Source of the DNA: Candidatus Omnitrophota bacterium
Lineage (GTDB): Bacteria; Omnitrophota; Omnitrophia; Omnitrophales; Aquincolibacteriaceae
Assembly: GCA_043821445.1 (NCBI GenBank)
Contig: JBDRCT010000040.1
Coordinates: 26,745-90,744, forward strand
Reading direction: 5' to 3'
Length of the DNA: 64,000 bases
Shown here: piece by piece, positions 44,982 to 47,598 of the stretch
How positions within the stretch are numbered: the stretch's first letter is position 1
How the letters are laid out: each line of letters begins with the position of its first letter
Notes under the pieces: generated by a model
Seen by the model: the letters and a program-made list of their open reading frames with translations, nothing else
Database searches by the model: none
What the model was told of the DNA's origin: nothing
Translations under genes and position numbers: made by a program

Positions 44982-46229
44982 ATGAATGATTTTACAGCTC
45001 CTGGAGCAAGGCAGTCACTGGACCGTGCGATGGAATACGCGTTGTATTTCTTGGTCGTGGGCGTTTCCATCTCGAATGCCCTAACCGGGATCGGAGTCGG
45101 AGCGGTGCTTTTGGTTTGGGTCTTTCGCAAAATAGCGTTGAAAGAAAAACTTTCGACGCCGCGCCCTCTGCTAATTTTGGCCGGTGTTCTTTTTCTGGCC
45201 TATGCCGCCTCCCTCATCCATTCCGAATACATGGGGCAGAGTATCCACGCCTTGTTCCTCAAGTATGCTAAATATCTTTTGCTGATGCTGGCCATTGCGG
45301 ACGGCGTCAGGGAAAAACGCGTTGCGGTCAACATGGCGCTCGTGTTGTGTTTAACCGCTACTTTCCTCTGCCTGGATGGGTTCTACCAGTTCTTTTCCGG
45401 CCGGGACTTTTTGCTTTTTCGCGATGCAGGCAGATTGGATGTTTTTTATAACGGATGGGAATTTCATTCTTACCGTGTGACAGCAACATTTCCGGCATCC
45501 AATACGTTCGCATCGTATCTTGTGCCGGTTCTGATGCTTGGTTTGGCATTTTCATTTTTTTATGGTGCCAAGACACAAAAAACCGCCTTGATAAAAGGGA
45601 TTTGCTTGGGCTGTATGGTTTTGTGCCTACTTTTGACGTTCTCCCGCGGAGGGCTGATCGCTTGTTTGGCGGGCGTTCTTATGCTGGCCTTTTTGCTGAG
45701 GAAAAAGATCCTGTGGATCATTCCCATGGTCCTCTTGGCGGCATTCTTATCCGGAAAGAATCTTTATGGCAACCGGTCAGGTCAAGAGGGTGTCATCGAT
45801 CCTACGGTGGAGACGAGGCTTCTCATGCTCAAGGATGCCACGCGGATGTTCGAGTCGCATCCTTGGACGGGGATCGGCCTGAACACTTACTACAAAACCC
45901 ACAAAAAAAACCGTTCCCTCGCGATCCCGCCATCCTATGCGCACAATAGTTACATTCAAATGATCGCGGAGGTTGGGATCATCGGTTTTATGTCCTTCAT
46001 GGCTCTCATGATCTACTGGTTCGGACGGGGGATGAGCGCGTTCAGGGGGTCGCGCGACCCTGAACTGAAATTTTTGTCAGGGGGCGTTCTGGCCGGCGTA
46101 TTGGGGTTGTGCGTGGCGTCTTTTTTTGATAATGTCCTCTTCGAGCTTTTGCCGGCAACGTTTTTTTGGATCCTTATGGGATACGGGATTGTCCTCGGAA
46201 GACTAGGATCGGAGAACCATGCCTCATAA
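44982..46229 (+). CDS. O-antigen ligase / polymerase family membrane protein (Wzy_C domain), second copy
   Basis: AHNSYIQMIAEVGIIGF signature. About 10 TM helices. ATG 44982 chosen downstream of the RgpF-like stop. Confidence 0.7.
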   Translation: MNDFTAPGARQSLDRAMEYALYFLVVGVSISNALTGIGVGAVLLVWVFRKIALKEKLSTPRPLLILAGVLFLAYAASLIHSEYMGQSIHALFLKYAKYLLLMLAIADGVREKRVAVNMALVLCLTATFLCLDGFYQFFSGRDFLLFRDAGRLDVFYNGWEFHSYRVTATFPASNTFASYLVPVLMLGLAFSFFYGAKTQKTALIKGICLGCMVLCLLLTFSRGGLIACLAGVLMLAFLLRKKILWIIPMVLLAAFLSGKNLYGNRSGQEGVIDPTVETRLLMLKDATRMFESHPWTGIGLNTYYKTHKKNRSLAIPPSYAHNSYIQMIAEVGIIGFMSFMALMIYWFGRGMSAFRGSRDPELKFLSGGVLAGVLGLCVASFFDNVLFELLPATFFWILMGYGIVLGRLGSENHAS

Positions 46230-46277
46230 AATAGTGCTTTTAAGCATTATCATCGTCCACGACAAGACCCGGGATCT
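46209..46277. repeat. left copy of a ~68-bp diverged direct repeat (Wzy-like 3' end plus remnant 5' end of the GT2 gene)
   Basis: tcggagaaccatgcctcataaaatagtgcttttaagcattatcatcgtccacgacaagacccgggatct. This encodes a decayed MPHKIVLLSIIIVHDKTRD fragment. Confidence 0.85.
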
Positions 46278-46357
46278 CGCCCATAGGTCCAGCTTTAAAT
46301 ATATACGGATTGAAACTTTAACTTGCGATTTGCATGATCTAGCATTAGAATAAATCC

Positions 46358-47551
46358 ATGATTTCACGAACTCTTGCTTCGAAGTTGTTATCCGTCGCCC
46401 GAAAATATCCGATCGTGCTTTTGACCGGTCCTCGGCAGTCCGGAAAGACAACCCTCTGCCGTGCCACTTTTCCCGGGAAGTCCTACGTTCTTTTTGAAAC
46501 CCCGCATGTGCGTGAGTTTGCAGAACTGGACCCCGTGGGCTTTCTCAAGGGATATCCCAAAGGAGCCATCTTTGACGAAATTCAACGTGTTCCTAAGCTC
46601 CTTTCCTATCTCCAGGGGATCGTTGATGAACATCGAAAAAATGGTCTTTATATTCTGACGGGAAGTCAAAACCTTGATCTTCTGAGATCCGTACAGCAAT
46701 CCCTTGCCGGACGCGTAGCCCTTTTGAAATTGCTGCCCTTTTCTGTGAAGGAGCTTGGCTCTCGAGTAGAAAAATATTCCATCGATAAAATCCTTTATAC
46801 GGGGTTCTATCCACGCGTCTATGATCGGAGGCTTAATCCGACGGAAGCTATGAGCCATTATGTGTCGACTTATCTTGAGCGAGATGTCCGTCAGATCGTT
46901 ACGGTTCGCAACTTATCCCTGTTTCAAAAGTTTCTTAAGATCTGCGCGGGCCGCGTCGGGCAGCTGTTAAATCTTTCCACGATAGGAAATGATCTGGGCC
47001 TTTCTCATACAACGGCCAGGGAATGGCTCTCCGTTTTGGAGGCGAGTTATATCGTTTATCTCCTCCCGGCCTATTATCGCAATTTCAACAAAAGACTTAC
47101 GAAGGCGCCTAAGCTTTATTTTTACGATACGGGACTGGCGGCTTATCTCCTGGGCATTGAAAAGCCGGCACAATGTGCACGGGATCCTTTGCGAGGCGCG
47201 CTTTTCGAAAATTTTATCGTGGTCGAAATTCTTAAAGGCTTTTGGAATGACGGGAAAAATGCCCCCCTTTATTATTTCCGAGACAACGCTGGCAATGAAG
47301 TCGACCTGTTGATCGAAAAAACTCGTAAGGTGCTTGGCGTGGAAATTAAGGCGGGGGCGACTATCAGTCAAGACTGGTTCAAGGGTTTGGATTATTTGAA
47401 GAAAGTGATGGGACGTGATGCCTTGACGCGGCACCTTGTTTATGGTGGTCTTGCTTCTGCTGAGCGCGGAGGTGCCCGCGCTCTTTCTTATCGAAACTTG
47501 TCCGAGATATTAGCCTGTGCCAAGATAGGTTCGGAGAACAGTACCTCATGA
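46358..47551 (+). CDS. COG1373-type AAA+ ATPase (AAA_14 + DUF4143) with C-terminal PD-(D/E)xK-like motif
   Basis: Walker A LLTGPRQSGKTT. C-terminal EVDLLIEK ... GVEIKAG. Flanked by direct repeats. Confidence 0.75.
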   Translation: MISRTLASKLLSVARKYPIVLLTGPRQSGKTTLCRATFPGKSYVLFETPHVREFAELDPVGFLKGYPKGAIFDEIQRVPKLLSYLQGIVDEHRKNGLYILTGSQNLDLLRSVQQSLAGRVALLKLLPFSVKELGSRVEKYSIDKILYTGFYPRVYDRRLNPTEAMSHYVSTYLERDVRQIVTVRNLSLFQKFLKICAGRVGQLLNLSTIGNDLGLSHTTAREWLSVLEASYIVYLLPAYYRNFNKRLTKAPKLYFYDTGLAAYLLGIEKPAQCARDPLRGALFENFIVVEILKGFWNDGKNAPLYYFRDNAGNEVDLLIEKTRKVLGVEIKAGATISQDWFKGLDYLKKVMGRDALTRHLVYGGLASAERGGARALSYRNLSEILACAKIGSENSTS

Positions 47552-47598
47552 AACCTGTAGTTTTAAGCATTATCATTGTCCACTACAAGACCCGGGAT
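47531..47598. repeat. right copy of the ~68-bp direct repeat (functional 5' end of the GT2 gene 47548)
   Basis: tcggagaacagtacctcatgaaacctgtagttttaagcattatcattgtccactacaagacccgggatat. Confidence 0.85.

Follow-up and report, generated by a model that had tools for sequence, protein, structure and literature searches.

Orphan gene remnants in the effector-immunity arrays of Rhs, contact-dependent inhibition (CDI) and type VI secretion (T6SS) systems have been attributed to homology-facilitated illegitimate recombination (HFIR) (PMC5361080), a process that has been demonstrated experimentally during transformation or conjugation in Acinetobacter, P. stutzeri, S. pneumoniae and E. coli, and that needs no dedicated recombinase (PMC3240628). 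Among candidate defence genes, PDC-S01 denotes a single-gene system that combines an ATPase and a PD-(D/E)xK domain in one protein; identified through 'guilt by embedding', it ranks as the fourth most common defence candidate across prokaryotes and still awaits validation, like most PDC systems (PMC12988326). The family itself, DUF4143/COG1373, has been classed as a PD-(D/E)xK family of unknown function (PMC3424549). In this work, we describe a PDC-S01 gene, encoding an ATPase with AAA_14 and DUF4143 domains, that stands between a Wzy-like gene and the gene for a family-2 glycosyltransferase (GT2) in a 64-kb stretch of DNA (64,000 nucleotides, hereafter the window) from a metagenome-assembled genome of Candidatus Omnitrophota. 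The direct repeats of about 85 nt that flank this gene are two different alleles of the Wzy/GT2 junction, and our verdict on the locus is that a known gene family was acquired by a known kind of recombination.

The initial annotation of this DNA held that the ATPase gene had been inserted between the Wzy-like and GT2 genes, and comparison with related organisms bears this out. Orthologous loci of relatives were gathered by genome and metagenome scans and compared by tblastn and blastn (loci carry L numbers here, and proteins P numbers). More than 10 related Omnitrophota loci, both forms of the junction allele included, have nothing between the two genes, the empty sites, at which Wzy and GT2 overlap, being those of L001, L002, L004/L086, L006, L081, L082, L088, L171/L172 and L174/L175; the structure in the window is thus a true insertion. 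Against L081, window positions 45019-46277 align with 4794-6053 and positions 47544-48513 with 5997-6966, and in L082, L002 and L006 the right-hand alignment begins at subject positions 5973-5979, so that some 82 nt of the empty site are doubled in the window. Measured against the relatives' empty sites, the doubled stretch amounts to ~82-86 nt (copies A and B in Table 1). As had been proposed, the ATPase is alone between the copies: the insert holds one credible gene, of 397 aa, and its antisense open reading frames (ORFs) gave zero family matches. The reported absence of transposase, integrase and inverted repeats likewise stands, none having been found in the insert or within ~10 kb, where all neighbours are polysaccharide-synthesis genes. 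The stretch 46276-47525 is not bracketed by inverted repeats, the ends of the cassette show neither a hairpin nor an inverted repeat, an Rfam search of 44000-52000 gave zero matches at E≤0.1, and a tRNA search of the window found none.

That the two junction copies are similar was also claimed initially, and alignment confirms it over a slightly longer stretch than was then described, with 65/78 identical columns (83%) in a global alignment. Smith-Waterman alignment of the ATPase flanks pairs 46199-46275 with 47522-47598 at a score of 42.5, compared with 9.2±0.8 (maximum 11, n=100) for shuffled sequence, and a repeat search divides the match into 46204-46231/47526-47553 (28 nt, 82%) and 46238-46275/47561-47598 (38 nt, 95%), offset by a 1-nt indel. 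The remnant reading MPHKIVLLSIIIVHDKTRD is indeed encoded out of context in copy A, at 46219-46275. Differences between the copies are distributed unevenly, occupying ~10/35 positions of the allele-variable part and 2/38 of the part that encodes the conserved N-terminus of GT2. This pattern follows the variability between alleles and not neutral decay, since the conserved part is little changed even though it is unconstrained in copy A.

The decisive differences lie in the architecture of the GT2 start codon. Type-1 junctions (L081, L001, L002, L006, L082 and L174) have the Wzy stop and the GT2 start overlapping in the sequence ATGA, and their GT2 protein starts with MKxVVLS; in type-2 junctions the ATG of GT2 is embedded in CCATGCC and sits 8 nt farther upstream, a spacer shorter by 1 nt keeps the frame, and the protein begins MPH (L003, L084, L171, P0015, P0019-21, P0024 and P0031 have this start form). 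The type-2 GT2 of L171 (MPHKAIILS) overlaps its Wzy (..GSENHAP, stop TAA) by 11 nt, and copy A has precisely this native architecture (..GSENHAS, stop TAA, MPHKIVLLS), with the GT2 ATG at 46219 placed 11 nt ahead of the Wzy stop; its diagnostic CCATGCC.CAT motif and 1-nt shorter spacer are common to L003, L084 and L093. Copy B, which carries the ribosome-binding site (RBS) and the working GT2 start, matches six of seven type-1 junctions at 14-17/21 core positions (L081 at 12/21) and type-2 junctions at 10-13/21, and its 29 nt from the ATG onwards are the same as in L174. These comparisons show the ~85-nt repeats to be two different alleles of the Wzy/GT2 junction. The initial annotation was therefore right that the junction is preserved twice and wrong that the left copy is a decayed duplicate of the right, copy A being a different functional allele; its proposal of a target duplication fails as well, as the MPH-type copy A and the ATGA-type copy B derive from two haplotypes and were not made at insertion. 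Target duplication followed by decay is rejected on the allele-specific characters of copy A (the CCATGCC start, the spacer, and the TAA 11 nt after the start), because the passage from a B-like sequence to A needs 3 substitutions in 4 bases, a 1-nt deletion and a TGA-to-TAA change, all unselected in a dead remnant. Had a type-2 copy lain downstream of the ATPase, it would have functioned as it is. Of the changes in copy A, only one is found nowhere else and looks like decay, a T->G substitution (Tyr->Asp) within the conserved VHYKT motif. The 44-codon ORF at 46219-46353 was considered as a gene and rejected, its 44-aa product having no Pfam match. Among the GT2 orthologues P0002-P0041 the start has shifted repeatedly, from MK.. 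with the ATGA overlap to MPH.. with the 11-nt overlap and MHLK.. in P0007, which suggests that the overlapping junction is unusually plastic.

The inserted unit has equally definite borders. At its right end the ATPase terminates in codons of Wzy origin, as the initial annotation had proposed: five homologues end 11 residues earlier (..LSEVVF, ..LSEIVR), the residues that the window protein has beyond that point, ..ACAKIGSENSTS, can be aligned with C-termini of Wzy from type-1 relatives (e.g. ..ALAGIGSENSNL in L006), and the DNA of the tail aligns with the Wzy 3' ends of L006, L082 and L001. These codons supplant the ATPase's own last codon and stop in a join without filler, and the novel junction reads ...GAGATATTAGCCTGTGCCAAGATAGGTTCGGAG. 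The left novel junction reads ...GACCCGGGATCTCGCCCATAGGTCCAGCTTTAAATATATACGGATTGAAAC, and includes a possible, uncertain match (AGGTCCA) to GT2 codons 26-27. Among the homologues, DNA similarity has a common first base (window 46305, which precedes the ATG by 53 nt) and ends at the stop codon; the start of this upstream block is equal in the window, L161, L162, L168/169 and L170, with unrelated sequence further upstream in each, and the right end of the conserved unit is simply the end of the ORF. A promoter scan of the block returned two sigma-70-like matches, TTGAAA-17-CATGAT and TTGCGA-17-TAGAAT. Between the promoter-like hexamers of the block in L161, L162 and L168-L170 stands an 11-nt palindrome, AAGTTTAACTT, which may be an operator and which a G->C change breaks in the window (46305-46330).

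With regard to the gene product, the window protein is like the PDC-S01 (COG1373) family in its full-length profile match, its two domains and its conserved Walker and PD-(D/E)xK residues, and differs only by the 12-residue C-terminal extension borrowed from Wzy. Pfam recognises DUF4143 (E=7.8e-52, 175.7 bits against a cut-off of 28.1) and AAA_14 (E=5.2e-26, 91.6 bits against a cut-off of 27), and the PADLOC model PDLC04790 for PDC-S01 matches residues 1-365 of 397 (E=3.2e-103). Walker A (GPRQSGKTT, G24-T32) and Walker B (FDE, D73/E74) are intact and, in a 12-sequence alignment, invariant or nearly so, as are the PD-(D/E)xK columns E314, D316, E329 and K331. By analogy with the literature, an ATP-driven nuclease acting in phage defence is a candidate role for the protein. 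Sequence comparison with solved structures gave no match to the ATPase, NCBIfam holds no model for it, and exact-sequence look-ups of the ATPase and GT2 proteins found no match. The family occurs on 324/72,556 plasmids and on 7 metagenomic phage-like contigs, and five homologues of the ATPase (81-87% identity) stand in unrelated contexts, beside a tRNA, TacA/TacT-like genes, HSDR_N and others. The homologues P0122-P0132, comprising all those at least 80% identical and most at 65-68%, lie on contigs of 1.4-3.5 kb; such short contigs may mark assembly breakpoints at repeated or strain-variable DNA, or low-abundance organisms.

Table 1. Features of the inserted unit, its flanks and the surrounding mosaic block (window positions); the last five rows give DNA identity to the related locus L081.
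Feature	Position	Strand	Remarks
Wzy-like gene (Wzy_C, O-antigen ligase/polymerase family)	44982..46229	+	Pfam PF04932, E=1.9e-22; ends ..GRLGSENHAS, stop TAA
Copy A, intact MPH-type junction	46191..46277	+	last 13 Wzy codons and first 19-20 GT2 codons
Orphan GT2 5' stub (MPHKIVLLSIIIVHDKTRD..)	46219..46280	+	homology to GT2 N-termini stops by ~46282
Left (putatively illegitimate) junction	46281..46304		~24 nt unlike GT2 or the ATPase unit (GT2 orthologues, five clade contigs)
Upstream block of the ATPase clade (GATTGAAAsTTTAACTTGC..), promoter-like	46305..46357	+	common to clade contigs
AAA_14 + DUF4143 ATPase-nuclease	46358..47551	+	codons 1-385 (to 47512) family-homologous; TGA overlaps GT2 ATG (ATGA)
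Wzy 3' end, 13 codons (ACAKIGSENSTS, stop), type-1	47513..47551	+	fused in frame to ATPase codon 385
Copy B, ATGA-overlap (type-1) junction	47513..47598	+	carries RBS (GGAG) and working GT2 start
Intact family-2 glycosyltransferase GT2 (MKPVVLSIIIVHYKTRD..)	47548..48519	+	Pfam PF00535, E=1.6e-20
Mosaic block (~1.7 kb)	46188..47900		copy A, cassette, copy B, first ~350 nt of GT2
Compared with L081	45768-46187		93.3% identity
Compared with L081	46188-46277		68.1% identity
Compared with L081	47513-47598		69.0% identity
Compared with L081	47599-47900		76.2% identity
Compared with L081	47901-48040		91.4% identity

The ancestry of the surrounding sequence was examined against L081, the nearest relative (Table 1). 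The transitions in identity at the two edges of the mosaic block have Fisher p=9e-10 (left) and 1e-5 (right), and within its first segment (46188-46277) L171 is a better match than L081, at 76.7%. Across the first 118 residues the GT2 of L081 (P0004) shares 76% identity with that of the window, against 90% over the other 205, a wider gap than in any other of the closest GT2 homologues (those at least 80% identical); a search for the donor lineage of those first 118 residues found no database relative above 83%. The ~1.7-kb block appears to differ in ancestry from its flanks, as would fit a transfer between strains through ordinary homologous recombination. A further shift was seen within the Wzy-like gene, which is 75.5% identical to L081 in 45019-45499 and 86-93% identical in 45500-46187, locally as high as 97%. 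Along the locus, identity to L081 varies from block to block between 65 and 97%, and the shift inside Wzy suggests that recombination has made a patchwork of the whole of it.

The reading that we favour, and to which we give about an even chance of being correct, is that two haplotypes were joined around the cassette by displacement recombination of the HFIR type, and not by transposition. A truncated MPH-type GT2 stub of 19-20 codons stands upstream of a complete MK-type GT2, which is the architecture that displacement leaves. As in the displacements of Rhs, CDI and T6SS genes, an incoming module would have ousted a resident allele via a conserved anchor, with a truncated piece of the resident left alongside, and remnant and working copy are different alleles (PMC5361080); unlike in those arrays, the orphan in the window is a 5' stub lying upstream, so that the anchor is downstream, the setting is a polysaccharide operon, the passenger is a defence candidate and not a toxin tip, and one displacement is visible and not an array of them. 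As read from the sequence, the likeness to HFIR would be that one junction falls in homologous sequence and the other, with filler, where there is no homology (PMC3240628), although the homologous arm would be just ~75-80% identical. In a donor strain the cassette would have lain upstream of GT2 next to a Wzy remnant, an arrangement that would resemble L084 and L003, where other genes occupy Wzy's place and the RBS region is kept. The incoming fragment, composed of cassette, Wzy tail and GT2, would have paired by homology within GT2, and an illegitimate join would have attached its other end within the 5' end of the resident MPH-type GT2, which would thereby have been replaced, its 5' stub staying behind as an orphan. 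The finished ~1.7-kb block may then have been moved or kept by ordinary homologous recombination in otherwise L081-like sequence. The left junction has its ~24 nt of unrelated filler and the donor-like tract ends near 47900 inside GT2; other histories are possible. The recombinational origin suggested in the initial annotation is thus the best reading in our judgement, and its phrase of exchange at gene junctions is a fair description, given that relatives hold different genes at the same junctions.

Several points weigh against this displacement. No donor haplotype with the cassette directly before a Wzy tail and GT2, and free of copy A, was found, and no database protein has the C-terminal extension of the ATPase. 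In core identity copy A is barely nearer to type-2 (13/20) than to type-1 junctions (9-13/21), and as its overall identity does not discriminate, the assignment of type depends on a few diagnostic characters of the start-codon architecture. The two GT2 allele types, only ~75% identical in DNA, make a poor homologous anchor, and no competence or other route of DNA uptake is known for the organism. The drop in identity to L081 may partly reflect fast evolution of the junction, rate heterogeneity or recombination in L081 itself, and a single genome does not reveal in what order the events took place.

A true duplication of a long target (~85 nt), made at a staggered break or by a template switch in replication and followed by replacement of one copy, the left or the right, with another allele in a short tract of homologous recombination, is possible but rather unlikely. 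The doubled stretch is one continuous segment of an empty site (L082 5973-6054), the copies have 95% identity over their right 38 nt, and homologous recombination is clearly frequent at the locus; yet an 85-nt mechanism would be left unexplained and without a candidate enzyme, the conversion tract would have to end inside a homology island of ≤60 nt, and the differing start-codon architectures would have had no reason to change, either being functional. Target-site duplications usually measure 2-15 nt. The window does resemble the sites of transposons and insertion sequences (IS), in that direct target repeats flank an insert absent from relatives, and differs from them in that its repeats are ~85 nt long and of different alleles, that transposase and terminal repeats are lacking, and that other copies of the family have no such flanks. 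In nine other family members from eight contexts (ATPase2, the second such gene of the window; L087; L161; L162; L163; L165; two genes in L166; L167), the search for flanking repeats gave scores of 8-14.5, with maxima of 11.5-16.5 among the shuffles; as all nine were at shuffle level, such duplications are rejected as a trait of the family. An integration of the Campbell type, by which a circle bearing the cassette and one junction copy, perhaps itself the product of recombination between flanking repeats in a donor, crosses once with the resident junction and leaves hybrid repeats on either side, would account for direct repeats that are each continuous with one chromosomal flank and whose left parts come from different alleles. 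We think it quite unlikely: single crossovers of circularised DNA are documented (PMC3240628), but the longest stretches without a mismatch between the copies measure only 16 and 14 nt, the model merely moves the first duplication back into a donor, and the GT2 body that follows copy B is nearer to type-1 than to type-2, contrary to expectation for a type-2 recipient, although recombination at a later stage could have obscured this. Integron cassettes and tyrosine-recombinase islands share with the window a promoter-proximal unit of one gene that occupies a defined junction and is bounded on either side by imperfect direct repeats; the window differs from these in lacking an integrase, an attC-like hairpin and a core of more than 16 nt, and in a cassette that has its own apparent promoter.

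An assembly artefact, whether by collapse of the ATPase copies of a larger insert or by merging of two strains via the shared 1.2-kb gene, is favoured by the source being a metagenome-assembled genome, by junctions that carry alleles of different strains and by the very short contigs that hold close homologues of the ATPase. It is nonetheless improbable, as both novel junctions must exist in nature in any case, the structure is coherent (an in-frame fusion, RBS and ATGA overlap kept, an intact co-directional operon), k-mers common to the copies are ≤16 nt and too short to mislead an assembler, and NCBI annotates both proteins on one 93,859-bp contig. We also considered that the PDC-S01 gene is a selfish, homing-nuclease-like element that cuts cassette-free alleles, with repair copying the gene together with donor flanks. 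The gene does encode a nuclease-ATPase (PMC3424549), the limits of the unit are sharp and conserved in five unrelated contexts, donor-type flanks accompany the cassette, three unrelated family members stand at junctions of this operon in two lineages, and the family is extremely abundant (PMC12988326) and found on plasmids. Homing remains highly improbable here, however, in that the process does not create duplications, neither a recognition site nor a repeated insertion site is evident, the nine other members have no flank signature, and sharp limits are expected for any conserved promoter and ORF once neutral flanks have diverged. The broader proposition, that PDC-S01 genes at large are self-propagating (homing-like or self-inserting) cassettes that target co-directional gene junctions and carry donor flanks, is distinctly improbable as well, and our literature search found no paper calling DUF4143/COG1373 mobile in its own right; if true, it would help to explain the abundance of PDC-S01 among prokaryotic 'defence' candidates. 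Lastly, it is scarcely credible that the cassette is ancestral to the clade and was lost precisely from the relatives: the ~85-nt direct repeats could mediate such a deletion, but more than 10 loci (69-85% GT2 identity, both junction alleles) are without the cassette, deletion between copies A and B would leave a hybrid junction of which none is seen, and the closest homologues of the ATPase stand in unrelated contexts.

Judged from the sequence, the operon would stay functional after the insertion, Wzy keeping its stop and GT2 its RBS and a start that overlaps the upstream stop, and the translational coupling of GT2 would now run from the ATPase, which may be transcribed from its own promoter or by read-through. 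Duplication of the junction by the join is what leaves the upstream gene with its stop and the downstream one with its RBS and overlapping start. As such, the locus provides a base-level example of how a single-gene defence candidate without mobile-element machinery can enter a packed core operon and leave it unbroken. It also carries a caution for annotation, since long 'target duplications' may be two recombined alleles, a fact visible only via the empty sites of both alleles. The current understanding of the gene family and of recombination is unchanged by it.

As for the setting, long ORFs lie nearly all on the + strand throughout the window, and proteins 100% identical to GT2 and the ATPase are annotated together on the NCBI contig mentioned above. 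The genes before the insert (aminotransferase, radical-SAM enzymes, YfhO-like, GT2, RgpF-like and Wzy_C) have surface-polysaccharide functions, and those after it are GT2, a carbamoyltransferase, SxtJ, family-9 and family-4 glycosyltransferases (GT9, GT4) and a sugar transferase. In relatives, orthologues of the Wzy-like protein show 72-85% identity and those of GT2 69-85%. Omnitrophota surface-polysaccharide operons repeatedly gather defence-type genes at gene junctions, as is seen in the window, L087 and L084.

The gap between GT2 and the carbamoyltransferase measures 14-94 nt in L006, L171 and L174, and in other relatives holds repeat proteins or a fusion of DUF1016-N with a staphylococcal nuclease (SNase) domain. 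In the window, the gene at 48500-49588 encodes a 362-aa protein that joins a staphylococcal-nuclease domain to an N-terminal region with weak similarity to DUF1016_N and PADLOC PDC-S02 (E=7e-8); the fusion is present in L081 and L003 and absent from most relatives, and this patchy presence suggests another defence-type accessory gene in the operon. A second junction duplication, ~2 kb downstream of the first, involves the 3' end of this fusion gene (49546-49586 and 49656-49750, E=0.003), with ~70 nt of unrelated sequence between the copies, one of them L081-like and the other variant. The second copy is the L081-like one (88.75% over 80 nt) and would encode ..AVPYLFL before a stop; the first is without a 53-nt segment (49679-49731), and its ORF now ends ..AVPYEEEG. 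Further downstream lie ATPase2 (49849-51012), another PDC-S01 gene, which matches PADLOC at E=4.2e-83 and shares 30% identity with the first, and a 58-aa ORF without a significant family match (51022-51198), both absent from L081, in which the gap between SNase and carbamoyltransferase is 200 bp. A degenerate copy of the 5' end of the 58-aa ORF on the upstream side of ATPase2 (MNTTMKKQ compared with MNDRMKKK) was considered; it is suggestive, yet not significant (E=0.06-0.4). An 18-bp inverted repeat at 49799-49837 (94% complementary, 3-nt loop) lies 12 nt upstream of ATPase2; one arm holds ATGAAAAAACAAC, resembling the start of the downstream 58-aa ORF, and the repeat may be the scar of a fold-back or template switch, or else a hairpin with a regulatory role.

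Two related loci hold accessory genes of their own. In L087, a third, unrelated AAA_14/DUF4143 (PDC-S01) gene (9048-10319), 25-29% identical to the two of the window, stands 15 nt upstream of the carbamoyltransferase and adjoins two papain-like peptidase gene fragments. In L084 (462-2815), the Wzy position upstream of GT2 is held by a small ORF pair that looks, as judged by eye, like a toxin-antitoxin pair, together with a DUF6036/AbiEii-like nucleotidyltransferase, and ~15 nt of the Wzy-end/RBS region is kept before the MPH-type GT2 start.

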